From Alphaproteobacteria bacterium (GTDB taxonomy: Bacteria > Pseudomonadota > Alphaproteobacteria > Rs-D84): a DNA stretch of 44,532 bases. Each line of letters starts with the position of its first letter. The first letter of the stretch is position 1. Location: the NCBI GenBank assembly GCA_017546085.1, contig JAFYXQ010000005.1, forward strand, positions 1-44,532. The letters run 5' to 3'. Shown here piece after piece: positions 5,591 to 40,624 of this stretch. The notes under the pieces were generated by a model. That model made no database searches, was not told where the DNA came from, and saw only the letters and a list, made by a program, of their open reading frames with translations. A program made the translations under genes and the position numbers.

Positions 5591-6042
5591 AAGAAAATAT
5601 TGTTTCTTTTTTGAAAAAATCTTTCCCGTTTTTGTTAACAATCGGGTTGTGGCGACTGTCCACACCAATATGGAATCCTGCGGGAATACTTGCCATTATC
5701 CCAATATTTTATTGCAGTTTTATTAGACCAATTCCATGGTTTGCATTGTTTAGTGTTTTTATGTGCTTTGTTATTGATTATAAATTTGAAACTATTTGTT
5801 TTTGGGTTGCGATGTATTGCCTGTTCTATGCGATAAACAGCTTTCAAAATTTAATCGATATTCAACGCATGGATAAAAATGCGATTTTTGCATTTCTTGT
5901 TTTTTTTGGTATATGTATAATTTTACAGATTTTTTCAAATCTATCTTTTATAAACCTGATTAATGGAATTTGGATTTTTATGTGGGTAACGTTGTTATAC
6001 ACACCAACAGTGGTATTAATCAAAAGGATTTATCATGATTGA
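5587..6042 (+). CDS. mreD: rod shape-determining protein MreD (polytopic membrane protein)
   Basis: 151-aa hydrophobic protein. It has an ATGA overlap with mreC and overlaps the mrdA start. The call is positional. Confidence 0.55.
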   Translation: MKENIVSFLKKSFPFLLTIGLWRLSTPIWNPAGILAIIPIFYCSFIRPIPWFALFSVFMCFVIDYKFETICFWVAMYCLFYAINSFQNLIDIQRMDKNAIFAFLVFFGICIILQIFSNLSFINLINGIWIFMWVTLLYTPTVVLIKRIYHD

Positions 6043-7800
6043 TACCGAAGTTTCACGTACATTCGATAGACGTAGTGCCTTGTTCCTGACTGCGGGTGCG
6101 GTATTAACATCTGGACTGATTTTGCGTATGTTACAAATGCAATTATTTAGCTATCAGACCTATAAGAAAAAAAGCGAAAACAACTCATTTCGTATTCAGA
6201 TTAATATGCCTGAACGTGGTAAAATACTATCGCGAAGTGGCGTACCTATTTCACGAGATATGCCGATATATCGTATTTATATTATTCCGGAAGAAGCCAA
6301 GGATTTAGAATACCTGATTCAAACGTTGCAAAAGGATTTGAATCTGAAACCAAAACGTGTTGAAAGTATTCGTAAAAAAATAAAAAAACAGATGAAATTT
6401 CAACCCGTATTGGTTAGTGAAAATACAAACTGGAAAAAACTGGCGCAAATTCAAGCAAAAAATATTTCTGGATTACATGTGGAAAGTGGTTATGCACGTG
6501 TGTATGAAATGGGACCTGCGGGGGCACAGATTTTTGGATATGTGGGGAACCTGCAAAACCCGTGCCAAACACACCATTTTTAACAACAGGCATTACTGGA
6601 CTTGAAAAGAAATTTAATGATGTTATGAAGGGTGATGCCGGAAAAACTGTTATGATAACAAATGCAGTTGGACGTATCACTGGTGAAGATAAATCTTTAT
6701 TCGTTCCACCAATAACAGGTGATGATGTAAAAACAACTATTGATGCAAACACACAGCGCATATTACATGACGCGTTAACACAACATCGTTCTGGGTGTGG
6801 TGTGGTTTTAGATATTAAATCTGGTGATATTTTGGCAATGGTTTCAACCCCAAGTTTCGATCCAAATATCTTCCGCGAAGATGATGGTGATGAATATATC
6901 GATAATTTACGTAATGATATCGCAAAACCATTTATGAATAAAACAATCGAAGGTTTATATCCCCCAGGTTCCACATTCAAAATAGTTGTAGCATTGGCAG
7001 CATTAGAAGCAGGCGCAATAACAGAAAAAGAAAAAATATTCTGTCCAGGACATTGGGATTACGGGGATAGACGTTATCACTGCTGGGAAGATAAAGGGCA
7101 TGGTTATGTCGATTTAGCAGGTGCATTAAAACATTCTTGCGACATATATTTTTATCAAATCGCATTACGTATCGGTATTGATTCTATCAAAGAAATGGCG
7201 ATAAAATTAGGACTGACAGAAAAATATATGGATGATATTTTATCGCGTGAAATGGCAGGGGTTATGCCAGATAGATATTGGAAAGAAAAACAAGTTGGTG
7301 CCCGTTGGGTTCATGGCGACACGATTATTTCAGGAATCGGTCAGGGATTTATTTTGACAAACTGTTTGCAATTGGCAGTTATGATGGCGCGTACCACATC
7401 AAATAAAAATGTGATTCCACGTATTATAAAATCCGACCAAAGACCTGTATTTAATAATCTAGGATTACAACAGAAAAATATCAAATTTGTTCTGAACGGT
7501 TTGGAACAGGTTACAAAAAAGGGTGGAACCGCCGCAGGAAGCGCGATTAATGTGGACGGAAAACGTATGGGCGGAAAAACAGGAACTTCACAGGTTCGTA
7601 GCATTTCTAAAAAAGAACGTGAAAGTGGGGTTCTGACAAATGAACAATTAAAGTGGCATATGCGAAACCATGGATTGTTTGTTGGATATGCACCAACTAA
7701 TAATCCAAAATATGCAGTTTGTATTGTTACAGAACATTCAGGCAGCAGCGGTCCTGCAGCACGTACTGCAGCAACAGTAATGAAGGAATTATTAAAATAA
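6035..7800 (+). pseudogene. mrdA: penicillin-binding protein 2 (elongasome transpeptidase), interrupted by a frameshift near 6555-6583
   Basis: The N-terminal part (6035-6583) has the TM anchor and pedestal, ends ...FGYVGNLQNP and stops at TAA 6581-6583. The other frame (6562-7800) continues ...PNTPFLTTGITGLEKKF and carries the transpeptidase motifs STFK, SCD and KTGT. Confidence 0.85.
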
Positions 7801-16513: not shown

Positions 16514-16804
16514 ATGAAACAGCAAGTTTTAAAAGCATTGGCAAATCCAGCACAAATATTTCATGTGCCATATATGTTGGCACTGATTAATTTTTTTGTG
16601 CAGTTTATCGCTTTTATTATAATTTTTGTACTTGGTTTAGTATTTTTTAATAAAGATGTAAGTCCATTATGGTTTTTGATATCTGTTATAATAGTTCATT
16701 CTATATTGGCTATTTTTTCAAAACGTGATCCGCAATTGGGGCAAATTATTATATCTAAGATTCAATTAATAAAACTAAAAATACCAAGGAAATTAGCAGC
16801 ATGA
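16514..16804 (+). CDS. virB3: type IV secretion system protein VirB3
   Basis: 96 aa with two hydrophobic segments and the pattern L..P..IFHVPY...N followed by KRDP. It has an ATGA overlap with virB4. Confidence 0.75.
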   Translation: MKQQVLKALANPAQIFHVPYMLALINFFVQFIAFIIIFVLGLVFFNKDVSPLWFLISVIIVHSILAIFSKRDPQLGQIIISKIQLIKLKIPRKLAA

Positions 16805-19227
16805 CGAATTTTGATAACTTCTTTAATTATTTTGCAGGTGGGGAATTTCCAATAACGTTAACTGTTTTGGTTATGTTGGTTGTGTTTCTATTTTTAGTGC
16901 TGATGATTTTTGTGCCAACAATAACAAAGAAGATTTTTCCAAGTTTTGGTTATTCGAAGTATGCAAATTATTTACCATTTAAACAGGTTAATAATGATAA
17001 TTCAATGTTATTAACAGATGGTAGTTATATTTGTGTTTATAAGGTTAAAGGACTGCAAACGAGTATGCAAGATAAGGAAGCACGTGAAAAATTCCTTGAT
17101 TTGCGGGCACAAATATTTAATCAAATTCGTGATCCAAATGTGGTTATGCGTTTTTATATGATTCGTGATGCGGCAGATGAGGTGTCTGATTATGAATTTA
17201 GACAACCTGTGTTACAAAAAATTTATGATAAGTGGCAAGGACAGGGATTAAAAATATTTTTAAATTCTTATTATATTGTTTTGTCTGTTAAGGGGCCTGA
17301 TGCGCGTGCAAAATTATGGCAATATGGGAATTATATAGAATCTGTGTTGGCGGCGTATAAACCGCAAATTTTGAAAAATAAAAGTCATGACAATATGGCT
17401 ACATTCTTGGGGCGTATATTATCACCGATTTCAAAGCCAAGACCAAAGACGGCTGATAATGATATTGCAAGTTTAACCACGGTTGATGATGTTGAATTTT
17501 TAAAAAATGGATTTGTTAGATATCAATCCGGTGGAAGTCAATCGTTTGCAGCTATTATTTCTTTTAAAACATCGCCTGATTATCTTGATGAAGAGTTTTT
17601 TGAAACTATTTCCACAATTCAGACAGAAATGATTTCAATGAATGCGTTTAAAATTATGGGAACTGCTGCTGTGGAATCAACGTTAAGACAACGTCGTACA
17701 ACAGCGGATGAATCTAAAACTTCTACGGAAGATCAGATTGAAGAAGCGCAATCGATTATGGATGAAAATGTTTCAGGAAATCAAAATTTGGTAAATTATT
17801 ATCCTTTATTTGTTTTGTTTGGGAAGTCGCGCGAAGAATTAGAAAAATATGTTGATGAATTTAGAAAAATTTCAGCATCTTTTGGGATTTCGCCGATTGT
17901 TGAATCATTTGCATCTAAGGTTTCTTGGTTTGCGCAGATTCCAGGATTTGATGTTTTTCCACGTTCTTTTAAATTGTTGTCGCGTGCAGCTGCGATTTCT
18001 ATTCCGATGTCAACACAACCACGTGGTGTTGAAAATTCAGATTGGGGGCCGGGGCCATTGGTTATTTTTCCAACTGCACAGGGAACACCATATCAATTTC
18101 AATTCCATGTTTCTGACAAACCTGCGGCGGTGGCACATACACTTACCATTGGGCCAACAGGTGGTGGTAAAACAACACTGTTTTCATTCTTGATTGCACA
18201 AAGTTTAAGACATCAAAAATTAAAAGCTTTCTTCTTTGATAGAAATAAGGGGGCAGAAATATTTACACTCGCAGTTGGTGGAAAGTACATAACTATGCAG
18301 GGTAAGGAAAAAAATAAAGACCCGATGGAAAATACTTTCTTGACACATTTAAATCCGCTGAAAATGCCGGATAGTGCTGCAAATAGGGCTTTTTTACGTC
18401 GGTGGTTTGCAATTATTTCTGGGCAAAGTGATAATGTATCTGCAGATGAAATTGCGCGTGCTGTATCGGTGAATTTTGATTATTTGTCTGATAAAGATAG
18501 GATGTTAAAAAATTTATGGGAAAGTTGTTTTTCTTCTGCTGGGAATATGCGACCTGCGTTGAAGAAGTGGGTTGATCCATTGCAGTATGGCGATATGTTT
18601 AATGAATCAAATGATACGCTTGATTTGCAGTCGCGATTAACAACATTTGATTTTACTGATATTTTGCAAGACCCTGTGTTATCGCCGGCAGTTATTTCTT
18701 ATATTTTGCACAGGATTAATAATATAACCGTTGCAGGTGGTAATCCATCATTGATTATGATTGACGAAACAGCACCGATGCTTGAAAATAAGATGTTCCG
18801 TGATAATTTTATTGCAGGTTTGCAAGAAGGACGAAAAAATCGTCAGGCATATATGGCCGCGTTCCAACGTGCAAATGTTCTTGATAAACTGGGGATTGGT
18901 GATGTTGTCCGTGGGCAAGCACAGACGGTATTATTCTTCCGTAATCCTGCGGCAGATGCCAATGATTATGCGCATTGGAATCTGAATCCACTTGAAATGG
19001 CATTTATTCAGGGGCGTGCATATCCAAATCTGAAACGTGCATTATTATTATCAAGACCTGTAACAGGTGAATCAGTGATTTTGAATACTGAACTGGGTGG
19101 GCTGGGCAGTATGTTGAGATTGTTTGAATCAGGACGTTCATCTGTGTTGTTAGCTGAAGAATTATATAAGATGTATGGTTCAAATTTTGTTGAAGAATAT
19201 CTGAAAAAGCAAGGTGTTACAGATTAG
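16801..19227 (+). CDS. virB4: type IV secretion system ATPase VirB4
   Basis: 808 aa with Walker A GPTGGGKTT and a Walker B-like region LIMIDETAPML. The size and position after virB3 fit. Confidence 0.9.
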   Translation: MTNFDNFFNYFAGGEFPITLTVLVMLVVFLFLVLMIFVPTITKKIFPSFGYSKYANYLPFKQVNNDNSMLLTDGSYICVYKVKGLQTSMQDKEAREKFLDLRAQIFNQIRDPNVVMRFYMIRDAADEVSDYEFRQPVLQKIYDKWQGQGLKIFLNSYYIVLSVKGPDARAKLWQYGNYIESVLAAYKPQILKNKSHDNMATFLGRILSPISKPRPKTADNDIASLTTVDDVEFLKNGFVRYQSGGSQSFAAIISFKTSPDYLDEEFFETISTIQTEMISMNAFKIMGTAAVESTLRQRRTTADESKTSTEDQIEEAQSIMDENVSGNQNLVNYYPLFVLFGKSREELEKYVDEFRKISASFGISPIVESFASKVSWFAQIPGFDVFPRSFKLLSRAAAISIPMSTQPRGVENSDWGPGPLVIFPTAQGTPYQFQFHVSDKPAAVAHTLTIGPTGGGKTTLFSFLIAQSLRHQKLKAFFFDRNKGAEIFTLAVGGKYITMQGKEKNKDPMENTFLTHLNPLKMPDSAANRAFLRRWFAIISGQSDNVSADEIARAVSVNFDYLSDKDRMLKNLWESCFSSAGNMRPALKKWVDPLQYGDMFNESNDTLDLQSRLTTFDFTDILQDPVLSPAVISYILHRINNITVAGGNPSLIMIDETAPMLENKMFRDNFIAGLQEGRKNRQAYMAAFQRANVLDKLGIGDVVRGQAQTVLFFRNPAADANDYAHWNLNPLEMAFIQGRAYPNLKRALLLSRPVTGESVILNTELGGLGSMLRLFESGRSSVLLAEELYKMYGSNFVEEYLKKQGVTD

Positions 19228-20205: not shown

Positions 20206-21006
20206 GTGTTTCAAAATAAAACATTTAGAAAATTATGGAAGGGGTTTTGGGAACCTATTCTAAGTTTGCAGATATTTCAATGGGTTATCGCTATTTTAAT
20301 GGCGATTCCGATTTGGTTCGTTTATTTTACATCAATTAAAAAAATTACAAATATTGATGTTTTTTATAAGTATAGAAAAAAGCCTGCAATATTTATTTTT
20401 TGGCATGGTCGTTCTATGATGTTAAGCCCAATTATTTGTTTGGGTGGAATGCATGCGTATGCTGTGGCAAGTCGCCATAAAGATGGACGTATGATGGCAA
20501 AATTACAACATTTATTTGGGTTACGTGCTATTTATGGTTCTTCGCATAAGGGTGGTGTGTCTGTTCTGCGCGAAGGTTTGCGTGTGTTGGCGCGTGGAGA
20601 TCATGGAATTTGTTTGTCGCCAGATGGACCTGGGGGGCCGTCTTTGCGTGTTCAGGATGGGGCGTTGTATTTTGCAAAGATGAGCGGGGCACCAATTATT
20701 CCTGTTTGTTATTCTTGTTCAAAGTCATGGTTGCAAGATAGGTGGGATAGGTATTTGGTTGCACTGCCTTTTTCAAAAATTACATGCAATATTGGAAATC
20801 CAATATTTGTGCCTAAAAAAGTAACACCACAAGAATTTGAAGATATTAGAAAAAATATAGAAGATTTTATGGTGGCGCAAATGCGTGAATTGGATGCAGA
20901 ATTTGGATTAAAACCTGCTGAGCAAGATTTGACATCGGTTGAATTTAAGCAGAAAAAGCGTGAGGCTGCTGCAGCAAAAAAAGCTAGTAAGCGTAAGAAA
21001 ATTTAA
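20206..21006 (+). CDS. DUF374-type lysophospholipid acyltransferase-like protein (lipid A/Kdo locus associated)
   Basis: N-terminal TM segment, then FWHGRSMM...SRHKDGRMMA...LSPDGPGGP motifs as in DUF374 proteins that accompany waaA/lpxK in alphaproteobacteria. It has a Lys-rich tail and a GTG start. Confidence 0.65.
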   Translation: MFQNKTFRKLWKGFWEPILSLQIFQWVIAILMAIPIWFVYFTSIKKITNIDVFYKYRKKPAIFIFWHGRSMMLSPIICLGGMHAYAVASRHKDGRMMAKLQHLFGLRAIYGSSHKGGVSVLREGLRVLARGDHGICLSPDGPGGPSLRVQDGALYFAKMSGAPIIPVCYSCSKSWLQDRWDRYLVALPFSKITCNIGNPIFVPKKVTPQEFEDIRKNIEDFMVAQMRELDAEFGLKPAEQDLTSVEFKQKKREAAAAKKASKRKKI

Positions 21007-21019
21007 AAGGAATTTTTTG

Positions 21020-21934
21020 ATGAAAACACCGCGTTGGTTTTTGAAAAAAAAATTAATATCGTTTTTATTATGGCCATTGTCGGTGTTGTATTTTTTTATC
21101 TCAAAAATTATTAATGTTATTAGGGGAAGAAAAAAATATGTTTCACGTCGACCTATAATTTGTGTTGGAAATATTTTTGCTGGTGGTGTTGGAAAAACAC
21201 CAATCGTTCGTCAAATTGCAGCGCATTTTGATGCGCCTGTTGTTATGCGTGGGTATAAGAAAGATAAGTCATTGACTGGTATCGGGGACGAGGCTTTTAT
21301 GTTAAGTAATGCAGGGTTGAACGTTCATGTAGGGGATAGAAAATCAAATCTTGTATTGTTAAATAAACAAAAATCTGAAAAAGGTCCAATTGTTATGGAT
21401 GATGGATTGCAAAATCCGACAATTAAAAAAGATATTTCAATCGTTGTTTTTGATGAAGGGTTGGGATATGGAAATGGTTTTTTGTTGCCTGCGGGACCGT
21501 TACGTGTACCGAAAAAATATGCACGTAAAGCAGATGCTATTATTGTTATTAGGTCAAAAAATCCAAAGAAAAATTTTGTTTTGCCAAGAAATGTACCTGT
21601 GTTTTATGCAGATAATAAGACAATTTCGCCATATACTAATAATCAAAAATTGGTTGCGTTCGCAGGTATTGGATATCCGGATAAATTTTTTGATGCGTTA
21701 ACTAATGTTGTGGCAAAACGTGCATTTTCTGACCATTATCAATATGATGATGATGATATTAAGTCGTTGATGAAATTGGCGGATAATAAAAAAGCAAAAC
21801 TGATAACCACAGAAAAAGATTGGGTTCGTTTGTCTAAGAAGTATCAAGCAAAGATAAAGTATGCGGTGCTGGAGACGGTTATAGAAGATAAATTTTTTGT
21901 TTGGTTAAAGGAGAAATTAAAATGCCAACAATAA
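21020..21934 (+). CDS. lpxK: tetraacyldisaccharide 4'-kinase
   Basis: P-loop VGNIFAGGVGKTP, then DDGLQN and TTEKD motifs. The ATG at 21020 is preferred over the upstream extension that overlaps the previous gene. Confidence 0.9.
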   Translation: MKTPRWFLKKKLISFLLWPLSVLYFFISKIINVIRGRKKYVSRRPIICVGNIFAGGVGKTPIVRQIAAHFDAPVVMRGYKKDKSLTGIGDEAFMLSNAGLNVHVGDRKSNLVLLNKQKSEKGPIVMDDGLQNPTIKKDISIVVFDEGLGYGNGFLLPAGPLRVPKKYARKADAIIVIRSKNPKKNFVLPRNVPVFYADNKTISPYTNNQKLVAFAGIGYPDKFFDALTNVVAKRAFSDHYQYDDDDIKSLMKLADNKKAKLITTEKDWVRLSKKYQAKIKYAVLETVIEDKFFVWLKEKLKCQQ

Positions 21935-22857
21935 AAAAAGAAGTTATTTTATCGGGGGTTGGAATTCATTCAGGTTTGCCGGTTAATGTCGTTATAAAAC
22001 CGTATGAAAAAAATGGAATCTTTTTTAAACGTGTGGATTTAGATGATGTGCAATTGATTCCTGCGCGGTTTGATAATGTTGGTGAAACAAAATTTCGTAA
22101 TACAACAATTGGTAAGTTGAATGCTGGGCATGTGCAGACGATTGAACATTTGATGGCTGCGTTATTTATTGTTGGGATTGATAGTGCGATAATTGAAATT
22201 AATGGGGCTGAAACACCAATACTTGATGGTAGTGCATCTGAATTTATCAAGAAAATTAAAGCAGTAGGTAAAACAGAAGGCGATTTAAAAAAGATTATTG
22301 TAAAAAAAGAAGTAGTCGTTTATGCGGCTGATGTTATTAAACAATTATCGTTGTTTGTTCGTTTGAAATTGTGGATGTTTAATAAAATTAATGGTAGAAA
22401 AGTTGATGGTTTTGTTAAATTGTCCCCAAATCAAGACGGGGTGTTGAATATAAATGCAACGTTGGTTTATTCTGAACCGATTATTGGAAAACAGTCTTGT
22501 GTTTATTCATATGATGGGACAAAAAAATCAATTGATGATTTTATTAAAAATTTTGCACGTGCACGTACGTTTGGTAAATATTCTGAATGGGAATATCTTA
22601 AAAAACGTGGTATGGGACGCGGGGCAAATGAAAATAATGTTATTGCATTGAATGATGCAGGTGATGGGACACTGAATAAATTACTGTGGAAAGATGAATT
22701 TGTTCGCCATAAAATAATTGATGCGATTGGTGATATGTTTACCAGTGGGGGTGTTGTTTGTGGGAATTTAGAATCTTATAAGGGAAGTCATGCGTTAAAT
22801 AATTTGGTGCTGAAAAAATTATTTAGCAATCCAGATAATTATGATATAGTTCAATAA
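21922..22857 (+). CDS. lpxC: UDP-3-O-acyl-N-acetylglucosamine deacetylase
   Basis: GVGIHSG start region, TIEHLMAAL and HKIIDAIGD motifs, and an AAGGAG SD at 21908-21913. Confidence 0.9.
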   Translation: MPTIKKEVILSGVGIHSGLPVNVVIKPYEKNGIFFKRVDLDDVQLIPARFDNVGETKFRNTTIGKLNAGHVQTIEHLMAALFIVGIDSAIIEINGAETPILDGSASEFIKKIKAVGKTEGDLKKIIVKKEVVVYAADVIKQLSLFVRLKLWMFNKINGRKVDGFVKLSPNQDGVLNINATLVYSEPIIGKQSCVYSYDGTKKSIDDFIKNFARARTFGKYSEWEYLKKRGMGRGANENNVIALNDAGDGTLNKLLWKDEFVRHKIIDAIGDMFTSGGVVCGNLESYKGSHALNNLVLKKLFSNPDNYDIVQ

Positions 22858-23391: not shown

Positions 23392-24654
23392 TTGGCCAAT
23401 CAAGTTATAACTATTAATAGAAAAAAGTATGCTGTCGGTTTGTTTTGGCAGCCTATATCGCATGGGGTTCCACCACGTGTTTTTGTGAAGAATCTTGCGC
23501 GTGGTATTGATAAAAAACTGAATTTGTTCGCAGAATATCGTGAAATGGTTGCACTGGGGTCGCGACGTTTTGGACAGCGTGCAACAATGCGTGTGGCTGC
23601 GGCTGCGGTTATGGAAAGTTTTTCTGAATATACGTCTTTCTTGGCGATGTTTCAGGTGTCAAATGGGTATTATTTGGTTGCATCGCGTAATGGTGTTATT
23701 ATAGAAGATAAGTTATTTTCTGCTGAAAATTTAGCGCGGGCAGAATATGTTAAGTTGATGGAAATTCCTGATTGGGGGGCATTTTTTGCGCCTGGTGCAT
23801 GGGGAATGCCGCGTGCAGTTGAAAAAAACTTGTCAGATGTTTTGAATGTGAATAATCATGTAACACTGCGTTCTATTAGTTATTTAAGGGCAGGGGTGAT
23901 ATCTGCTTTGTTGGTGGTTTTGTTTTTTGTGTTGTTTATGGGGATTTTTAAGGATTCGGTTAAACAAGCGTTTGGTCCAAGACCGCAGGTTGCAGAATTA
24001 AATCCAGAATTAGTTGCAGAATATAAACGTCAGATAGAAGAAAAAAATAAAGAATTAGATGTAAAATTTGAAATCGAAAAACAATTACCACCTGAACCGA
24101 TTGTTATGCCGTATGAATTATTGCCTGATATGATATCGCGGGCAGAATTGTGTTATCGGGCGATTGGTTTTGTTATGCAGCCAATTACAGGTTGGAATCA
24201 GGTTAGTGCGATATGTGGGGAAACACATGTGGTTGCTGAATTAAAGCGGTCGTTTGGTACATTGGATGAATTTTATAATGTTGCAACTGAATTAATGCCG
24301 GGTGCGTTTGTAGAAGAACTTGATGAAGATACATTGCGTGTAACGGCAGTTTTACCAAAACTAGATTCAGTTTCATCCCAAGATGAACGTGATGCTGATA
24401 CGATTTTGCGTGATATAACTTCTTTGTTTCAAGGGGTTGATACCACTGTGAATGCACAGATTGTGATGGATACATTAACAAATGGGGTTGATGTAAAAGA
24501 ATTAAGTTTGGTTGAAATTGAAATTGAATCAAAGTTAACACCAGTGCATTTTATCAAGATTTTTGAAGATTTTGGTGGTGTTTATTTGATGCAAGCACGT
24601 TGGGACGTGGCAAAACGTATATGGAACTATGAGGTGATAATCTATGCAAAGTAA
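23392..24654 (+). CDS. bitopic membrane protein resembling type IVb pilus accessory protein PilO/PilO2 (PAP_PilO-like)
   Basis: 420 aa with a TTG start. The N-terminus (...INRKKYAVGLFWQPIS...) matches my recollection of the PilO2 GLFWQ signature. It has a single mid-protein TM segment (GVISALLVVLFFVLFMGIF). Its size and position precede PilP/Q/R-like genes. Confidence 0.5.
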   Translation: MANQVITINRKKYAVGLFWQPISHGVPPRVFVKNLARGIDKKLNLFAEYREMVALGSRRFGQRATMRVAAAAVMESFSEYTSFLAMFQVSNGYYLVASRNGVIIEDKLFSAENLARAEYVKLMEIPDWGAFFAPGAWGMPRAVEKNLSDVLNVNNHVTLRSISYLRAGVISALLVVLFFVLFMGIFKDSVKQAFGPRPQVAELNPELVAEYKRQIEEKNKELDVKFEIEKQLPPEPIVMPYELLPDMISRAELCYRAIGFVMQPITGWNQVSAICGETHVVAELKRSFGTLDEFYNVATELMPGAFVEELDEDTLRVTAVLPKLDSVSSQDERDADTILRDITSLFQGVDTTVNAQIVMDTLTNGVDVKELSLVEIEIESKLTPVHFIKIFEDFGGVYLMQARWDVAKRIWNYEVIIYAK

Positions 24655-25312
24655 AAAAGTATTTTTTGTTGTTTTGTTATTTATTCTGATGCCGATTATG
24701 TCAATTAAGGCAGAAGAGGTTATAGTAGAAGAACAGGTAGGTATAGAGCAGATTTCTGCTGATGCGGTTGCTGATTATCAGGTTCAGGGTTCTTTGTTTC
24801 AACAAATTACTGATTTAGAACAAGAAAAGGTTTTAATGCAATTGGAAAAAGAACGTGCACAGTTGGATTTGGAACTGGATAGATTAGCTGCGGAAAAAAT
24901 AAAACTGCATATGGAAATCGATACCCTGTCAGGGCGTGCAGAACAGCAGCAACAGGAAATAGAAACCCAAAAAGCAAAATTAGAAGCCGAGGCTGCACGT
25001 ATAGAACATGAAAAAGAAGCCTGGCAGGCACAGGCTGAAAAAGAAAAAACAGCAGCGGTTGCAAAAACAACAAAAAAACAAGAAAACACATCAATGGATA
25101 TTGCTGAAAAATATAGATTGGTTAATGTGGTTGGGGCTGGAAATCAATTACAGGCAACTGTTGAAGATTTGAAGTCAGGACAGTCAAAACGTGTTGCCGT
25201 GGGTAAGGTTTTAGACGGCTTTACTGTAAAATCTATATCACTGGATGAAGGGGTGGTATTTGAAGGTCCTGATGGTGAAATGCAGAATTTAAATGTTAGT
25301 AATGGAAAATAA
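24644..25312 (+). CDS. periplasmic coiled-coil protein, PilP-like (GspC HR-type C-terminal beta domain)
   Basis: Signal/anchor MQSKKVFFVVLLFILMPIMSIKA, a long Q/E/A/K coiled coil, and a C-terminus YRLVNVVGAGNQLQATVEDLKSGQSKRVAVGKVLDGFTVKSISLDEGVVFEG typical of PilP. It overlaps the upstream gene by 11 nt. Confidence 0.45.
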   Translation: MQSKKVFFVVLLFILMPIMSIKAEEVIVEEQVGIEQISADAVADYQVQGSLFQQITDLEQEKVLMQLEKERAQLDLELDRLAAEKIKLHMEIDTLSGRAEQQQQEIETQKAKLEAEAARIEHEKEAWQAQAEKEKTAAVAKTTKKQENTSMDIAEKYRLVNVVGAGNQLQATVEDLKSGQSKRVAVGKVLDGFTVKSISLDEGVVFEGPDGEMQNLNVSNGK

Positions 25313-25314
25313 TA

Positions 25315-26949
25315 ATGCCAAAACAAAAAGATAATTTTAATAATATCAATACCTATGATAAGCCTTCTGTACCGGCGGGACTTGAAAATTCAGAAAGCAA
25401 AGATATTATTGATTATTTGTTTGAAAATAATAATCGGTTGTTAACTGCAACTGGTGCAGCAATGGAATTACCGCATGATACACAAGGGTTGATTGCGTAT
25501 TTTTCTGGTGGCGAAATTATTATTTCACGTACACATCGTTATGATGGTCGTGTGTTGGCTTTCCTTGATTTGTTAAAACGCAGCGGAAGTTTTGTTCGTG
25601 AACCATTTTATTCTGATTTGGGATTGATTTCAAATATATATAAATCAAATGACCTAAAATTAGGTGGGCGTGCACGTTTTAAACAGGATTTTGATAACCA
25701 AATGCAGAAAGACTTTGTTGATATTATTGCAAAGGCTGCTGCGCAAAAGGTGTCTGATGTTCATATAGAGGTTGCAGACCAAACAACAATTTTCTTTCGT
25801 ATAGATGGCAGTATGCAGCCTGTGTTGGAATATAATTCACAATGGGGTGAATCTTTTGTTCGTGCAGCGTTTGCATCTGCTGATATGTCAAATGCAAACT
25901 ATGCCCAGAATGAATATCAGTCAGCTCAAAAGGATGGTCGTACACCGTTACGTGGAACCAAGGATTTATATTTACCAACAGGGGTTTTGGGTGTTCGTAT
26001 GCAATTTAACCCAATTGCATTTGGCAGTCGATATGTTGTTATGCGATTGCTGTATGATAACCCGTCCGAAGGTATAAAGGTAGAACAAGAATTTGGACCA
26101 TATGAACAACGTTTGTTAGCGCGTATGCGTTCATTTCCAACAGGATTGGTTATTGTTGCGGGGCCAACAAGTTCTGGTAAATCGACAACGCTTGTACGTA
26201 ATATGTCAATGATGTTGCGTGAACGTAATTATGAAATAAACATGATTACAGTGGAAAATCCTGTGGAACAGAAGATTTTTGGGGCACGTCAGATGCCGGT
26301 TGTTAATACAACAAATGAAGAACAACGTGAAGAAAAATATGTTGAAGCATTGGCTGCGGCATTGCGAAGCGACCCCGATACATTGATGGTTGGTGAAATT
26401 CGTACGTTGGCTGCGGCACAATTAACAGTGCGTGGGGCATTATCTGGCCATAATGTGTGGACAACATTGCATGCGAATTCTGCAATGGCAGCTTTGACAC
26501 GTTTGCTAGATTTGGGAATAGAACCGTTTAAATTGAAAGAAGAAACATTGATGCGTGGTTTGGTTTCAATGCGTTTATTTAAAAAGGTTTGTCCATATTG
26601 TCGTGAACCATTGATAAATCATCCTGAACGTGGTGCTTATCGTCGTGTAATGGATGCGTATGGCGAAATCGGATTAAAACAGGTGTATCAACGTGGTGTT
26701 GGTTGTGAACACTGTAATGGAACAGGGAATTTTGGTCGTGTAAAGGCTGGTGAAATTATAATTACAAATAGTGAATTTTTAAGACTAGCATTGTCAGGTG
26801 ATACAGATGGGGCGGTACATTATTGGTTGGAAAAAATGGATGGACGTACATTGAAAGAAGCGGCTGCTTCACTGATGTTGCAAGGGGTTATTAGTATTGA
26901 TGAAATAGAACGTTGGGTCGGGCAATTAGACCAGCCAGGGGTTTATTAA
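25315..26949 (+). CDS. GspE/PilB-family secretion/pilus assembly ATPase (R64 PilQ-like)
   Basis: Walker A GPTSSGKST, Asp box ENPVE, Walker B DPDTLMVGEIR, His box GHNVWTTLHAN and a tetracysteine cluster CPYC...CEHC. Confidence 0.9.
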   Translation: MPKQKDNFNNINTYDKPSVPAGLENSESKDIIDYLFENNNRLLTATGAAMELPHDTQGLIAYFSGGEIIISRTHRYDGRVLAFLDLLKRSGSFVREPFYSDLGLISNIYKSNDLKLGGRARFKQDFDNQMQKDFVDIIAKAAAQKVSDVHIEVADQTTIFFRIDGSMQPVLEYNSQWGESFVRAAFASADMSNANYAQNEYQSAQKDGRTPLRGTKDLYLPTGVLGVRMQFNPIAFGSRYVVMRLLYDNPSEGIKVEQEFGPYEQRLLARMRSFPTGLVIVAGPTSSGKSTTLVRNMSMMLRERNYEINMITVENPVEQKIFGARQMPVVNTTNEEQREEKYVEALAAALRSDPDTLMVGEIRTLAAAQLTVRGALSGHNVWTTLHANSAMAALTRLLDLGIEPFKLKEETLMRGLVSMRLFKKVCPYCREPLINHPERGAYRRVMDAYGEIGLKQVYQRGVGCEHCNGTGNFGRVKAGEIIITNSEFLRLALSGDTDGAVHYWLEKMDGRTLKEAAASLMLQGVISIDEIERWVGQLDQPGVY

Positions 26950-26950
26950 T

Positions 26951-28021
26951 ATGAATAAGCTGGAATTGTTATATGCTAAAATTGTTTTCAGATTGAATAC
27001 TGAAAAACGTATGTCGATTTGTAGAAAATTGGCGTCTTTGTTACGTAACGATTTTACATTAATTGATGCGCTGGAACGTCTGGAAATGATTGAATCTAAA
27101 AATGGTGCTAAGCCACGTGAACCATTTGCAATTGTTATGCGTCAATGGCAGAAAAATCTTGAACGTGGTATGACGTTTTCAGAAGCAACACGTGGTTGGG
27201 TTCCACCCGAAGAAACGTTGTTGGTTACGTCTGGGAATTTGTCGAATTTGGTGGTCGCGCTGGAAAATGTTGGACGTGTCGTTAGTGGTACGCAACGTAT
27301 TCGTCGCGCAATGACAACAGCGGTTGGGTACCCTATGTTTTTATTAGCATTGACATTTGGTATTATTTTGATGGTTGGTATTTATCTTGTTCCGCCATTG
27401 GCCGAGGTTGCAGGAAATAATATAATTTGGCGTGGCAGTGCACAATCTTTAATTTGGATTTCTGATTTTTCAATAAAATATTGGTATTATTTCCTTGTTG
27501 GATTTGCATCACTTGTTGCGATTATTTGGTTGAGTTTACCAAATTGGGCGGGGCGTATGCGTGTTTTGGCGGATAAATTACCACCATGGAATGTTTATAA
27601 AATTCAAGTATCTGTTGGTTGGTTAATGTCATTGGCTGCGATGGTTAGTGCAGGGGTTACAATCCCTGATGCGATGCGTATGCTTGCCGATAATGCAAAT
27701 AGATATTTACAAACAATTCTTGAAAAAACATTACGTTTTATTGCAAATGGTGAAAATCTTGGGGTTGCGTTATCGCATACAAAACGCGATTTTCCTGATT
27801 CTGAAATAATTGGTGATTTGACTATTTATGCTGATATGAATGGTTTTGATGAAAATCTGACTCAGGTTGCGAATGATTATTTGGATGAATCTGTTCGTAA
27901 AATGGAAAAGATTTCAAATACGTTAAACAGCCTTGGTATATTGTTAGTTTCTGCGATTATTGCGTGGGTTGTTTTGGGTACATTCCAGATGCAGGACCAG
28001 ATTACATCAGCCCTATCTTAA
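26951..28021 (+). CDS. GspF/PilC-family inner-membrane platform protein (R64 PilR-like)
   Basis: 356 aa with two repeated T2SSF-like halves and three hydrophobic segments. It starts 1 nt after the ATPase stop. Confidence 0.85.
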   Translation: MNKLELLYAKIVFRLNTEKRMSICRKLASLLRNDFTLIDALERLEMIESKNGAKPREPFAIVMRQWQKNLERGMTFSEATRGWVPPEETLLVTSGNLSNLVVALENVGRVVSGTQRIRRAMTTAVGYPMFLLALTFGIILMVGIYLVPPLAEVAGNNIIWRGSAQSLIWISDFSIKYWYYFLVGFASLVAIIWLSLPNWAGRMRVLADKLPPWNVYKIQVSVGWLMSLAAMVSAGVTIPDAMRMLADNANRYLQTILEKTLRFIANGENLGVALSHTKRDFPDSEIIGDLTIYADMNGFDENLTQVANDYLDESVRKMEKISNTLNSLGILLVSAIIAWVVLGTFQMQDQITSALS

Positions 28022-35950: not shown

Positions 35951-35988
35951 AAAAAAACGCCGGATATATTCCGGTGTTTTTTTTATTT
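35951..35988. terminator. bidirectional terminator between tsaE and ftsA-rpe
   Basis: AAAAAAACGCCGGA-TATAT-TCCGGTGTTTTTTTT. It overlaps the stop codon of the minus-strand gene. Confidence 0.6.
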
Positions 35989-37758
35989 GTCTGATTTAAG
36001 CAGGCTGTGCACGGCTAGTGGAAAATCGTGTGATTTGGCAAGATATGAACCACTGACCAATAAATCGGCACCTGCATCCCAACATAACTGTGCGGTTTTG
36101 TCAGTTATTCCACCATCAACAGATATGGTGTATTTTAATCCGTATTTTTTACGTGTCGCAGCCAATACGGATATTTTGTGTATAGCCATTGGTTCGAACT
36201 GTTGACCAGCTGCACCAGGGGTTACAGACATTACCATTACTTCATCTATATCACGTAATACAGGTTTTAATAATGATACAGGTGATTCTGGATTTAGTGC
36301 AATGCCAACGCGGCGACCTGAATTTTTTATTGTTTTTATTGCGTTACGTAGACCCGATGTGTTGGTGGATAATATTATGGTGTCAGCACCCGCAGCAATT
36401 GCGTTTTCTGCCCATATTTTTGGACTTTCTGTCATTAGATGTACGTGGAGATGGCTTTTTGTATTGTTGCGAATAGTTTTTAATTCATCGATACTGCCAG
36501 AGATTTTATCAACATAAAATCCATCCATTATATCAACGTGTATCATTGATATGTTTGCAGATTTAAATAATGTGTATGTTGCAGGATTGTACATATCAAA
36601 ACAAAGAGTGCTTGGTAAAATAGGTACAAATTTTAATTTGTTTTTTTGTTTGTGTTTAAATAGTTTTATAAACCAATTAGCACGTTTTGACCATTTATTA
36701 TGACGTGATATGTATTGTTTTCTGTGTTCAGATTCAGAATTCCATATGTATTCTGATAATGCGCGAACCGTGCCATCAGACGGTAATATTTCAGTTGTTA
36801 CTGCGAAGGCATTTTCTATAAAATCACGCAATCCTTCAATTTCAGAGCCACCGCCACTAAGTATGATTTTTGTTGGTTTGTATTTTGTAAATGATGGCAG
36901 GCAACCGTCTTTGATGTTGCTGATTATTTTAATAATGATGGGTAATGTAACTTCGTTAACGTCGCTGCGTGAAAAATCATATGCTGTATCAGCTGGGGTG
37001 AATCTGTCCATTTCCTTGGGGATTAATGATGTAACAGAACGTTTTATTGTGTCTGCTGATTCAGGGGTTATGTTAAATTTATTTATTATTGCATTGGTTA
37101 TATCGTTACCGCCAAGCTTTATTTTTGTATGCCATATGGGACCGCGGTCTGTCCATATTGATGCGCTGGTGTATTCTGAACCAAAATCAATAAACATGGT
37201 GGTTTGTTTATGTGTGCGATAAATCATATTCTGTAAAAATTGTGGGTCAAATACAGCAATTGCTTCAATGTGTGCAGCGCGTAGGCAATTAAATAATTTT
37301 TCAAAATCATTACGGTTATAAAATATTGTCCCAAAGACAGACATTAATTGATGGTCGATATGTCCAATTGGGGATATAATATTTCGTGCACATGTTGTGT
37401 CATAACGCAATGGTAAAATATGTATCGCAAAATAATTATCAGGTGTTTCGATTTTTGATATTTGGTTGCTGATGTCTGATGCATTTATTTTATGTTCACC
37501 GTTCCAAACAGTACTTTTTGCGGTCATTTTAAATTCAGATGCACCAAGGTTTCCTGTTATGTATGCTTTATCAAAATTTGTGTCGATTTGTTTTTCTAGT
37601 TCATCTATTACTGATTTTAATGCAAATGCGGTATCAAAACTATCGATGCTGAAAAATGCAGATCTGTCAATATTGGCGTTGCGGACACGGTGTGCAATAC
37701 CGCGAACACCATATGTGCCAATATCAAGGCATAAAAAAGAAGAATCAAATAAATTCAT
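35983..37758 (-). CDS. ftsA: fusion protein: cell division protein FtsA (N-terminal, about 375 aa) plus ribulose-phosphate 3-epimerase (C-terminal, about 215 aa)
   Basis: FtsA motifs: LDIGTYGV, FIDFGSEYT, KLGGNDIT, ILSGGGSEIEGL and an amphipathic helix WSKRANWFIKLF. The same frame continues with Rpe motifs: ILPSTLCFD, IHVDIMDG, HVHLM, MSVTPGAAGQQF, VDGGI and GADLLVSGS. Confidence 0.8.
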   Translation of the reverse strand: MNLFDSSFLCLDIGTYGVRGIAHRVRNANIDRSAFFSIDSFDTAFALKSVIDELEKQIDTNFDKAYITGNLGASEFKMTAKSTVWNGEHKINASDISNQISKIETPDNYFAIHILPLRYDTTCARNIISPIGHIDHQLMSVFGTIFYNRNDFEKLFNCLRAAHIEAIAVFDPQFLQNMIYRTHKQTTMFIDFGSEYTSASIWTDRGPIWHTKIKLGGNDITNAIINKFNITPESADTIKRSVTSLIPKEMDRFTPADTAYDFSRSDVNEVTLPIIIKIISNIKDGCLPSFTKYKPTKIILSGGGSEIEGLRDFIENAFAVTTEILPSDGTVRALSEYIWNSESEHRKQYISRHNKWSKRANWFIKLFKHKQKNKLKFVPILPSTLCFDMYNPATYTLFKSANISMIHVDIMDGFYVDKISGSIDELKTIRNNTKSHLHVHLMTESPKIWAENAIAAGADTIILSTNTSGLRNAIKTIKNSGRRVGIALNPESPVSLLKPVLRDIDEVMVMSVTPGAAGQQFEPMAIHKISVLAATRKKYGLKYTISVDGGITDKTAQLCWDAGADLLVSGSYLAKSHDFPLAVHSLLKSDK

Positions 37759-37761
37759 TTC

Positions 37762-38442
37762 TTATTTTACCAATATTCGCGCAGAATCGCGCATGTCAAC
37801 CATTGATAATTTTTTATCAAGTAATTGATGTTTTTTATTTAGTGATATTAGTGTCCCAATGGCAGATATCGGATTGTTTTCAGGTAACATTATACGAATT
37901 CCTGAATTTGTATGTATATCCCAACGACGATTTTCAATCCATTCGATATAATCAATTTGGCCAATGAAATTGTGTGCAGCCTTGGTTATTTCTGTTATAT
38001 CATTTGGTACAGGGCCACGGAAAACAATGCTGGCAATATTTCGTTCGTCTGCAGGTGTATTTACGATTGTTCCATCAGCGGATAAAGGATAGTATTTTTC
38101 ACCATCTGTCCATAATGCAATCGCCTGATGCAGTGTAACCTTGATGCTGATGTTGCCGTTGGGTAGGCGACGAACAGCAGATTTTTTTATCCATGGGGTG
38201 TTAGAAACGCGGGTGTTTATTGTGTCTAAATCAACGGAATATGAACGCGTCCCAGGTGGCAAAGCAATCGCAGCAGATAGTAATGATAGGTTTGCATCAC
38301 GTTGATCCGCAGATACAGATATGTTGCGTACCATTGATATAGCGTTATGTCCGGTTATTGTCATCACAGTACGGGTGCAAAAATATATTGCCAATGTAAT
38401 TGCAATTATAAAACACAGCCAAAACCATATCGTTCGTTTCAT
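37762..38442 (-). CDS. ftsQ: cell division protein FtsQ
   Basis: N-terminal TM segment, a POTRA-like region (...NTPWIKKSAVRRLPNGNISIKVTLHQAIALW) and a C-terminal ...RRWDIHTNSGIRIMLPE...VDMRD pattern. It lies 3 nt upstream of ftsA. An alternative start is at 38478. Confidence 0.8.
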   Translation of the reverse strand: MKRTIWFWLCFIIAITLAIYFCTRTVMTITGHNAISMVRNISVSADQRDANLSLLSAAIALPPGTRSYSVDLDTINTRVSNTPWIKKSAVRRLPNGNISIKVTLHQAIALWTDGEKYYPLSADGTIVNTPADERNIASIVFRGPVPNDITEITKAAHNFIGQIDYIEWIENRRWDIHTNSGIRIMLPENNPISAIGTLISLNKKHQLLDKKLSMVDMRDSARILVK

Positions 38443-38487
38443 GTCGAGCATTATACCATAAAATATGTTAATAATCAAAAAGTGTTT

Positions 38488-38868
38488 TTACATTGCGCGC
38501 AATAAATATCCGCGTCTGAACATACATTTTCGGTAATAACCCACAGATTTAGATGTTGTATTACGTGGAACTGACATCAGGCTGCGCTGACCAACGTCGC
38601 GATATTCGTTTGATTGAAATGTTACCCACAAACCATCCCAGTCAGGCATAACACCACTTTGGTTCGGGGCCAATAATTTGGCGAGTCTGGATTTTGGTTG
38701 GTATGATGGTGTGTTTATGCCAAGGCAAGCCTTGTGATCACGAACAAACTGTTCTGTGGTAACAGCTTCGTTTTCCCAGTTTAATATTGTGGCATCATCA
38801 ATACTGCCACGATTAACGGATGCACAGGCGGTTAAAACTAAAAAAATTGGTAAAAATTTAATTCTCAT
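38488..38868 (-). CDS. hypothetical lipoprotein (126 aa)
   Basis: Lipobox LTAC (MRIKFLPIFLVLTAC). No family recognised. Confidence 0.5.
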   Translation of the reverse strand: MRIKFLPIFLVLTACASVNRGSIDDATILNWENEAVTTEQFVRDHKACLGINTPSYQPKSRLAKLLAPNQSGVMPDWDGLWVTFQSNEYRDVGQRSLMSVPRNTTSKSVGYYRKCMFRRGYLLRAM

Positions 38869-38943: not shown

Positions 38944-39267
38944 ATGGCAATAACCGTTCAAAATTTTATTAAACTGGCTAATTTTTACAATCAAACCGCG
39001 ATAATGATGTCTGCGATTTGTGTGCAAAAGGGCGGAATTGCACTGGAAAATTATGTTGGAAGATTTTATGCAGCAGATGTACTTGAATACGTGTTGGAAT
39101 ATGGACGCAGGTTAATTGCGATTGATAAAAGTGTTTCTCCAGAAATAAAGGGGCTGATTGATAGAATGGCTGCGCAGTTCGAAAATATGCGTTCGATGGT
39201 TACCCCAACACAAAAACCAATACATGAAATGACACTAGAAGAATTTGAAAAAGTTATGAATATATAA
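38944..39267 (+). CDS. hypothetical protein (107 aa)
   Basis: SD GGAAAGGACAGAGAG lies before the ATG. It sits directly upstream of, and is probably co-transcribed with, the secretin-like lipoprotein gene. Confidence 0.4.
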   Translation: MAITVQNFIKLANFYNQTAIMMSAICVQKGGIALENYVGRFYAADVLEYVLEYGRRLIAIDKSVSPEIKGLIDRMAAQFENMRSMVTPTQKPIHEMTLEEFEKVMNI

Positions 39268-39298
39268 TATGATATATCAAAGACAAAAGGGAAAGGAT

Positions 39299-40624
39299 AT
39301 GATTTTCTTAAAAAATATAATGGGTTCGGTCTTGGTTTTTGCTACGTTGGTGGCATGTCAGCAGAAACAACAGATGCCGTTGTATGATAATATTACAGTT
39401 GTTGATGAATTGGTTATTGATGAAAATTCTGTGCCTATTTTTCCAAAGAAGGCGGCATTGACAACTGATACTGCGCGTCGTTTTTCAATAGAATTACCAA
39501 AACGTTGCGAGGTTGATTGGAATAATCAGACTGTGGTTTCTGTTGTGCCTGCAGAGAAGATAGAGATTGTTCGTTTAGGTGTCGGGGATAAATTGCCTGA
39601 ATTAAAGGTGTCGGATTATGAATTTAAGGATTTAACTGTTAAAAAGGCACTTGATAAATTGTTGGACGGGACAGATGTTTCAGTGGTAGAAGATGAAGTG
39701 TTGTATGAAAAGATTTCTGGTACGATTTCATCTGGTGTGTTATCTGATGCGGTTGAACTGATGACCAAGATGGGACGTGTGTATTATTCTTATGATGAAA
39801 ATACGGGTGAATTGCATTTAACACATAGGGGAAAATGGTTAATAAAAATGCCGCAAGATGAAACTATAATAATGGCAATGTTGGATGCGATGCATGGGGC
39901 AGATATGCGGAACTTGCTGGTTGATTGGCAGGACAAGACAGTTGTGTTTGAAGGTAATTATCAGACCGAACGAGAAGTTGCTAAAATAATCGCTGATATC
40001 GCAGGGAAAAAGTATATGTTGGCCTGGGATATCGATGTTTATCGTGTTTATCCACGTACGGATAATCCGATTGTTTGGATGAATTTGTTGCCTGCATTTG
40101 GGGAAAAAAATATAAAGATGTCTATCCCTGGGGTTGTGGGACGTGCGCTGGTTGTGGGACCTGAAATTAATACTAAAACATTGCAGGAATTTATGGCGCA
40201 ACAGGCAAATGTTGTTTTGGTATCCCAAGGGACGTTTGCGATTCCAAATGGTTGGCAATCAAGGTTTGATATTGGTCAATGTGGCAAGGAAGAAAGACTT
40301 GAAACAGATTTAGTTATTGGGGCAACTGGAACATATGGTGATTATGCAGGGCGTAAAAAAATAGATGCAAAAATTGTTCTGAGAACAAGTGCAGGTGAAT
40401 TGTCTTCGTTTAATATACCATCAACAGTTGGGGATAATTATGTAATTGTTGGTATTCCAACGCATTCGTTTGTAACAACACCTGAAACGTTGGTATCACC
40501 ATTTGCTGAATTGGTGGTATTTATGTCGCCACGTGTGATATCAATTGTCGATGGTCCGGTTGGGCATGATGATAATGCAGAAACGTTGGTTGGTGATGCG
40601 TTGCGCGATTTTTTGAATGATTAA
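39299..40624 (+). CDS. outer-membrane lipoprotein with secretin-like features (possible PilN/BfpB-type lipoprotein secretin)
   Basis: Lipobox LVAC and an N0/STN-like segment LTVKKALDKLLDGTDVSVVEDE. The C-terminal region VVLVSQGTFAIPNGWQSRFDIGQ...IDAKIVLRTSAGEL...VGDNYVIVGIP...ELVVFMSPRVI follows the secretin-domain pattern. The CDS itself is solid, but the family call is tentative. Confidence 0.35.
   Translation: MIFLKNIMGSVLVFATLVACQQKQQMPLYDNITVVDELVIDENSVPIFPKKAALTTDTARRFSIELPKRCEVDWNNQTVVSVVPAEKIEIVRLGVGDKLPELKVSDYEFKDLTVKKALDKLLDGTDVSVVEDEVLYEKISGTISSGVLSDAVELMTKMGRVYYSYDENTGELHLTHRGKWLIKMPQDETIIMAMLDAMHGADMRNLLVDWQDKTVVFEGNYQTEREVAKIIADIAGKKYMLAWDIDVYRVYPRTDNPIVWMNLLPAFGEKNIKMSIPGVVGRALVVGPEINTKTLQEFMAQQANVVLVSQGTFAIPNGWQSRFDIGQCGKEERLETDLVIGATGTYGDYAGRKKIDAKIVLRTSAGELSSFNIPSTVGDNYVIVGIPTHSFVTTPETLVSPFAELVVFMSPRVISIVDGPVGHDDNAETLVGDALRDFLND

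Follow-up and report, generated by a model that had tools for sequence, protein, structure and literature searches.

Can a single bacterial gene encode both the cell division protein FtsA and the pentose-phosphate enzyme ribulose-phosphate 3-epimerase (Rpe), or is such a gene an accident of sequencing? The question is raised by a 44,532-nucleotide stretch of DNA, called the window below, which covers positions 1 to 44,532 of contig JAFYXQ010000005.1 in assembly GCA_017546085.1 and comes from an alphaproteobacterium of the Rs-D84 lineage. Its minus strand carries at 35983..37758 an open reading frame (ORF) that had been predicted, from the letters alone and without database searches, to be an in-frame fusion of ftsA and rpe (the original prediction). 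Our analysis confirms a genuine in-frame fusion that is conserved and under purifying selection. We put at roughly three in four the probability that its product is a single bifunctional polypeptide serving the lineage as both FtsA and Rpe.

The fusion gene is conserved in frame

The frame runs from an ATG at 37758 to a TAA at 35985-35983, directly downstream of ftsQ as the original prediction had it, and encodes 591 amino acids (aa) or ~67 kDa. It consists of an FtsA-like actin-fold core (aa 1-342, 36733..37758), a long amphipathic basic helix (aa 343-367, 36658..36732), a Lys/Arg-rich linker KHKQKNKLKF (aa 368-377, 36628..36657) and a ribulose-phosphate 3-epimerase (beta/alpha)8 barrel (aa 378-591, 35986..36627), all on the minus strand. 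We collected the best 80 loci with one genome per GTDB species, and found the full-length fusion in all 80 at 58-83% identity, with the junction open in frame in every one of them. The genomes bear the names Candidatus Enterousia, 'Alphaproteobacteria bacterium' or 'Rickettsiales bacterium', and their sources are the guts of yak, sheep, goat, deer, horse, chicken and human. When 5.8 billion proteins were searched, over 120 clusters of 587-598 aa matched with 98-100% query coverage and 68-100% identity; they stem from ENA, Logan, NCBI and JGI assemblies. Altogether the fusion is present in over 200 protein clusters. Orthologues, to which the original prediction had looked for a check, thus carry the same fusion at the species level and also in the deep clades described below.

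The ratios of nonsynonymous to synonymous substitution rates (dN/dS), calculated by the Nei-Gojobori method on 47 close pairs, are 0.09 for the FtsA core, 0.22 for the helix and linker and 0.06 for the Rpe part, which indicates that all three segments, the linker included, are translated and selected. The mean identity over 81 species is 63.5%.

An assembly or sequencing error could be suspected since an A7 homopolymer (36641-36647) lies exactly at the junction, where an indel might have joined two genes. We give this explanation practically no credence. Hundreds of assemblies made independently, in different projects and from different hosts, contain the fusion, and the junction DNA differs among them, often without an A run; in the 81 loci the longest run of A at the junction has between 2 and 8 residues. 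The removal of one A would end the FtsA part as ...KHKQKTN*, just as had been predicted, and would still leave rpe without a start codon. The 80 of 80 loci, the deep clades and the variable junction DNA together rule out an artefact.

Could the one ORF yield two proteins, a normal FtsA and a free Rpe, through cleavage of the linker or through an internal Rpe start? The linker is predicted to be disordered and is rich in Lys and Arg, and hence would be accessible to proteases; its cleavage would restore the canonical layout of FtsA, and slippage at the A7 run of the window would produce the ...KHKQKTN* end mentioned above. However, the 12 codons preceding the Rpe part of the window contain no in-frame ATG, GTG or TTG, as originally predicted, and none lies within 12 codons upstream of strand beta1 in 72 of the 81 loci, which rules out an independent rpe start. 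Slippage is ruled out by the A run of 2-8 in the orthologues, with the frame always open, so that neither slippage nor internal initiation is conserved. The linker has 10 aa in 70 of the 81 orthologues (range 9-12), which is tighter than a cleavage site requires, and no candidate protease or cleavage motif was identified. We therefore consider two separate products unlikely.

The C-terminal part is a ribulose-phosphate 3-epimerase domain

The Pfam profile PF00834 (Ribul_P_3_epim) matches aa 397-573 with an E-value of 1e-43 and 149.5 bits (cut-off 21.1), and the NCBIfam profile NF004076 (rpe) matches aa 380-580 with 179.2 bits against a cut-off of 165. Two further profiles stay under their cut-offs, i.e. 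the equivalog TIGR01163 with 153.3 bits (cut-off 212.6) and AlsE NF007266 with 140.9 bits (cut-off 271). The Rpe of S. pyogenes (2FLI) is matched by sequence with an E-value of 1e-40 from its residue 6 onward, and therefore no more than a few N-terminal residues of a normal Rpe are replaced by the linker. In a Foldseek comparison the modelled C-terminal part superimposes on 2FLI with a template modelling (TM) score of 0.92, a root mean square deviation of 1.5 A and 36% identity, and many further Rpe structures superimpose with TM scores of 0.84-0.93. The original prediction of a complete Rpe TIM barrel is thus borne out by two profiles above their cut-offs and by the fold. The barrel begins at strand beta1 with VPILPS, which extends up to aa 383, and has no start codon of its own.

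The active site appears to be that of an ordinary Rpe. In the alignment with 2FLI, the residues of its HxD, HLM and VDGG motifs, which are the metal ligands and acid/base catalysts in 2FLI and human RPE, correspond to H407, D409, H440 and D548 of the window protein. This quartet is intact in all but two of ~229 fusions, and conservation also extends to the phosphate-binding motifs MSVxPGxxGQ and GS. The sequence after HxDxMDG differs from the known enzymes: 2FLI and AlsE (3CT7) have FVPN at this place, while the window protein has FYVD(K) at aa 413-418 (~36505-36522), and the position is altered throughout the fusion family.

The N-terminal part is probably a divergent FtsA

Pfam and NCBIfam give only a weak actin-fold signal of the FtsA/PilM/MreB type over aa 30-325. 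The window protein scores 37.4 bits with the Pfam FtsA profile PF14450 (gathering score 31.8) and equally with PilM_2, and it reaches 58.6 bits with the NCBIfam equivalog TIGR01174, whose cut-off is 175.85. Since a sequence-only search of the PDB with the N-terminal part gave weak FtsA matches (E-value 3.5e-6), a structure model was needed. The AlphaFold2 model, built with 76 homologues, has a mean predicted local distance difference test score (pLDDT) of 91.7. When its N-terminal part was compared with the PDB using Foldseek, the top 17 matches were all FtsA (E-values 1e-24 to 1e-19, TM scores on the target 0.64-0.72), including the structures from S. aureus (3WT0/3WQT), X. poinarii (7Q6G), V. 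maritimus (7Q6F), E. coli (7Q6D) and T. maritima (1E4G/4A2A/4A2B). The PilM structures rank below these with TM scores of 0.51-0.57.

The nucleotide-binding motifs are retained, i.e. phosphate-1 DIGT (aa 12-15), phosphate-2 DFGSEYT (aa 191-197) and the adenosine motif GGG (aa 302-304), with D12/G14/T15, D191/G193/T197 and G302-G304 kept in 94-99% of the ~229 fusion proteins. The phosphate-2 motif had been read as degenerate and as a hint of altered nucleotide binding. This idea has to be dropped: the motif aligned with it in the ATP-bound structure of S. aureus FtsA is DIGEDVT, and the motif residues are conserved in over 94% of the fusions, so that DFGSEYT does not speak for altered nucleotide binding.

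One might still regard the N-terminal module as some other actin-like ATPase similar to PilM, or as a decaying remnant, in which case the protein would be just an extended Rpe. The low TIGR01174 score and the equal Pfam scores for PilM_2 and FtsA speak for it, and so does one homologue annotated as PilM. The phosphate-1 Asp is gone in some deep members (P0146, P0149, P0151 and P0133), and ftsZ is not adjacent to the gene. The TM scores, however, favour FtsA over PilM, and the gene follows ftsQ directly in each inspected locus where FtsQ is recognizable by Pfam, i.e. in the window and upstream of the fusion in two further loci (L081 and L082). The FtsA-specific 1C insert is also detected in relatives: SHS2_FTSA of Pfam scores 44 bits in P0143, 33 bits in P0156 and 25.8 bits in L082, with no match at an E-value of 0.01 or lower in the window protein itself. 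Decay is excluded by the dN/dS of 0.09 and the mean identity over the 81 species. We find it quite improbable that the module is anything other than FtsA; a PilM or MreB identity as such is ruled out by the fold ranking, the SHS2 insert and the ftsQ synteny.

What had been called a full FtsA therefore stands with regard to the actin fold and the motifs, while the core is divergent, comprises about 342 aa and falls below the TIGR01174 cut-off. As part of the single-polypeptide reading, we consider it likely that these 342 residues are the FtsA of the lineage, divergent but in the canonical slot after ftsQ and with its nucleotide-binding motifs retained.

An amphipathic helix and a short linker form the junction

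The helix at aa 343-367 is found both in the model and in the 81 orthologues. Its length is 25 aa in 80 of the 81 orthologues at an identity of only 39%, and the identities of the helix and the linker range over 36-39%. The hydrophobic residues at positions 356, 363, 366 and 367 are retained across the orthologues, with Arg/Lys around them. The maximal hydrophobic moment averages 0.67; random segments taken from these proteins give 0.45 +/- 0.14, and the membrane helix of E. coli FtsA gives 0.62. The mean net charge of aa 354-377 is +8.3. K or R account for 52% of the linker residues. Along the helix the mean pLDDT of successive 10-residue blocks is 93, 89 and 69, followed by disorder at aa 368-379 with pLDDT <50 at aa 371-373.

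The end of the helix, WSKRANWFIKLF (aa 356-367, 36658-36693), is the putative former membrane-targeting helix of FtsA, and both this segment and KHKQKNKLKF were found where the original prediction had described them. The C-terminal linker of FtsA and its membrane-targeting helix are the most likely origin of the junction helix and linker. The junction helix would fit an in-plane helix binding to anionic lipids, judging from its composition. The membrane-anchor-like helix has indeed become internal, as had been proposed, and now precedes the whole Rpe domain.

The fusion appears to be old

We searched with the FtsA part alone (aa 1-375), exhaustively, against 1.84 billion representatives, one per 50%-identity cluster. 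About 22 representatives with an E-value below 1e-13 have a C-terminal Rpe: 19 are essentially complete (E-values 1e-97 to 1e-13, 24-45% identity, 542-623 aa) and all of these carry the Rpe part, and the three truncated ones carry whatever part of it is present. Shorter matches in the same E-value range are fragments at contig ends. Ordinary FtsA proteins (~400 aa) appear only from an E-value of ~1e-12, with 23-29% identity. The distant member P0156 as query gave 112 matches with E-values below 1e-20, of which 111 have 540-610 aa and one is a 429-aa fragment on a 1.7-kb contig; PF00834 is present in all of them. Neither the search of the 1.84 billion representatives nor that with P0156 found a complete, unfused close relative. 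A profile search with the distant FtsA parts returned mostly Enterousia-type clusters and recovered one distant query sequence, and a metagenome scan with a four-sequence alignment gave three fusion loci (two complete, one at a contig end) and two Rpe-only matches.

The identities of the two halves co-vary among 16 deep representatives (Mantel r 0.78, a value reached in none of 5000 permutations), as expected from a single old fusion that has been vertically inherited. The data fit a single ancient origin and vertical inheritance, as far as these comparisons can tell.

The genomes with the fusion span ~20% to 55% GC. In L081 (19-28% GC) the order is a MacB-type permease, a 434-aa gene, small ORFs, a small lipoprotein-like gene, FtsQ and the fusion; in L082 (55% GC) the same block from permease to FtsQ is followed by the fusion and then LpxC, LpxK and DUF374. 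A third locus (L087), from a metagenome-assembled genome named 'Rickettsiales bacterium' at NCBI, has MreC, VirB4, DUF374-LpxK-LpxC, a 207-aa gene, the fusion and TsaE, and the 207-aa gene in the FtsQ position has no Pfam match. The lpxC gene is also present in the window together with lpxK and DUF374 (20206-22857), ~13 kb from the fusion, while in L082 and L087 the trio lies a few kb away.

Enterousia belongs to the GTDB order Rs-D84 (PMC12306168). The genomes of this order are mostly smaller than 1 Mb with incomplete glycolysis, they encode the non-oxidative pentose-phosphate steps except for transaldolase, and their lifestyle is probably partner-dependent (PMC12306168). The window itself carries a VirB4/TrbE-type ATPase and a pilus/secretion cluster with a PilO-like protein, a T2SSE ATPase and a T2SSF platform (16801-19227 and 23392-28021), which may be relevant to the partner-dependent lifestyle proposed for Rs-D84 (PMC12306168).

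A proposed bifunctional protein and its alternatives

We propose that the fusion is an ancient gene that would be translated as one ~67-kDa polypeptide in Candidatus Enterousia and related uncultured gut Alphaproteobacteria, whose genomes are small. Its N-terminal part would act as the FtsA of the cell and its C-terminal part simultaneously as Rpe. The helix probably still lies on the anionic inner face of the membrane, and together with the 10-residue linker it would hold the enzyme within a few nanometres of the membrane. The linker joins the barrel at its bottom and at a distance from the active site, which should remain free. We infer from this arrangement, in line with the tethering to the divisome in the original prediction, that the enzyme would be located at the membrane or the divisome and may be functionally coupled to division.

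Several observations weigh against this proposal. In addition to the TIGR01174 score, the model has a predicted TM score (pTM) of 0.61, i.e. both domains are confident while the placement of one relative to the other is uncertain. The change from FVPN to FYVD makes the substrate specificity of the Rpe part not certain, and cleavage may take place in the disordered linker. The clade of P0153, P0156, P0157 and P0158, whose higher-GC loci are L082:8001-9701 (55% GC) and L087:10001-11698, has no amphipathic helix and a short Pro/Gly/Arg-rich linker instead; the helix is therefore not essential to the architecture, and the putative membrane anchoring through it is not universal in the family. Finally, the classical ftsQAZ block is broken, since ftsZ was not found next to ftsQ-ftsA within +/-10 kb in any of 82 sequences, i.e. 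the window and 81 related loci.

Two deviant members raise the possibility that the Rpe barrel does more than catalysis. In P0130 (L081:4568-6295) the catalytic quartet reads N-D-N-Y and the MSVxPGxxGQ loop is deleted, and in P0133 it reads Y-T-H-C; both keep the Rpe domain at full length and open with its active site destroyed. Both are very divergent, AT-rich in their genes and rich in Lys, Asn and Ile. The Rpe part of P0130 scores only 28.8 bits with the Pfam profile. P0130 is encoded in the orthologous ftsQ locus. At the ~19% GC found there, chance stop codons would interrupt a stretch of ~200 codons, and hence the stretch would be under selection. Its domain was still modelled as an eight-stranded barrel, with the bias that the alignment behind the model consists of intact Rpe sequences. 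These two sequences hint at a pseudo-enzyme retained on FtsA for a non-catalytic role.

The barrel might accordingly be a working structural or regulatory part of the division machinery, an idea that overlaps with the bifunctional one and that we hold only tentatively. Free Rpe forms dimers or hexamers; the barrel could be an oligomerisation scaffold that clusters FtsA and its helices, or a pentose-phosphate sensor that modulates FtsA. It would then be needed for division even where catalysis is lost, as in P0130 and P0133, and may couple division to the pentose-phosphate status. The junction length, nearly invariant in the 81 species despite the drift of its sequence, and the lack of an unfused version among the family members found are in line with such a role. 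On the other hand, the dead enzyme is limited to two sequences, each seen once, and the other 227 of ~229 fusions have a perfect active site, with the strongest purifying selection in the protein (0.06) acting on it as on a plain housekeeping enzyme. Moreover, shrinking genomes are expected to fix fusions of neighbouring genes without functional coupling. A neutral fusion locked in by genome reduction is an alternative, favoured by the strongest selection falling on an ordinary Rpe active site. The bifunctional single polypeptide remains the reading we prefer.

The locus and its neighbours

The ftsQ gene (37762..38478, minus strand, 238 aa) is recognized by FtsQ_DivIB_C of Pfam with an E-value of 3.7e-10 and by POTRA_1. 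Only 3 nucleotides separate its stop from the ATG of the fusion in the window, and the two genes are probably co-transcribed. An intrinsic-terminator-like GC-rich hairpin with A/T runs on its flanks lies directly after the fusion stop (35951..35983, both strands); on the minus strand its stem at 35974-35960 is followed by CGTTTTTTTG. This predicted hairpin closes the ftsQ-ftsA::rpe unit and faces the convergent tsaE, which lies beyond it together with uvrB. No second copy of ftsA or rpe was found within +/-10 kb of the 82 loci.

Three ORFs without a Pfam match lie around ftsQ, within 38488-38868 on the minus strand and 38944-40624 on the plus strand. The first encodes a lipoprotein-like protein of 126 aa on the same strand as ftsQ and upstream of it; the other two, of 107 and 451 aa, are divergent and have a MacB/LolC-type permease and an ABC ATPase behind them. 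Synteny of this block of unmatched ORFs and permease around ftsQ extends to L081; in L082 the elements that recur are the permease, an ORF of 437 aa, FtsQ and the fusion. Elsewhere in the window the gene for PBP2 (mrdA), adjoining mreC and rodA, is split on the plus strand into two overlapping pieces in different frames, i.e. 6035-6583 (PBP_dimer) and 6562-7800 (transpeptidase). The split reflects a frameshift or pseudogene, or else a mistake in the assembly.

Annotation and significance

The fusion goes under the name 'ribulose-phosphate 3-epimerase' in public records, with 'hypothetical protein' in some cases and 'pilus assembly protein PilM' in one; MBE6461695.1, MDR2413307.1 and MBR2286472.1 are among the annotated homologues. 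The lineage appears to be without FtsA in surveys because the fusion is annotated only as Rpe (or as hypothetical or PilM). Annotation-based surveys will thus count it as lacking FtsA, which our finding corrects. The original prediction knew of no described FtsA-Rpe fusion, and we found no description of such a fusion, or of a link between Rpe and the divisome, in the searchable literature either. The sequence is already public and both halves come from well-known families; what is new is the interpretation and the domain architecture.

A free membrane helix at the C-terminus is regarded as necessary for FtsA, and tags added there in the laboratory usually damage the protein. A 24-kDa enzyme placed behind the FtsA helix and kept down to ~25% identity offers a natural test of how much freedom the FtsA anchor needs. 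If Rpe is truly a subunit of a working FtsA, this would be the first case in nature of a core divisome protein in permanent union with an enzyme of central metabolism, and the first FtsA to work with an internal membrane helix. The catalytically dead copies offer a lead, open to testing, towards a covalent connection of metabolism with division, or could equally be fusions that were locked in during genome reduction.

Comparison with known systems

FtsA is the closest known counterpart of the N-terminal half. It is the best structural match for aa 1 to ~360, the fusion gene directly follows ftsQ, the phosphate-1, phosphate-2 and adenosine motifs are conserved, the SHS2/1C insert is detected in members of the family, and an amphipathic basic helix comes after the core at the position of the membrane-targeting helix of FtsA. 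Unlike the solved FtsA structures, to which it is only 15-17% identical, the fusion stays under the TIGR01174 cut-off, has a core ~40 aa shorter and lacks the long flexible tail before the helix; its helix is internal with a whole enzyme behind it, and ftsZ does not lie downstream.

The C-terminal half resembles Rpe (2FLI and human 3OVQ) in its identity and TM score to 2FLI and in the metal/catalytic and phosphate-binding motifs. It differs in having no initiator Met, with the first ~5 residues replaced by the FtsA linker, in FYVD for FVPN, in its TIGR01163 score of 153.3 versus 212.6, and in the two catalytically dead relatives.

Metabolic enzymes are known to moonlight as division regulators, e.g. 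UgtP in B. subtilis, OpgH in E. coli, and GdhZ and KidO in Caulobacter. Each of these is a protein of its own whose binding to FtsZ is reversible and responds to metabolites. The fusion shares with them the concept of linking an enzyme of central metabolism to the Z-ring machinery, but its enzyme has a covalent, permanent connection to FtsA, and any regulatory effect would be hypothetical.

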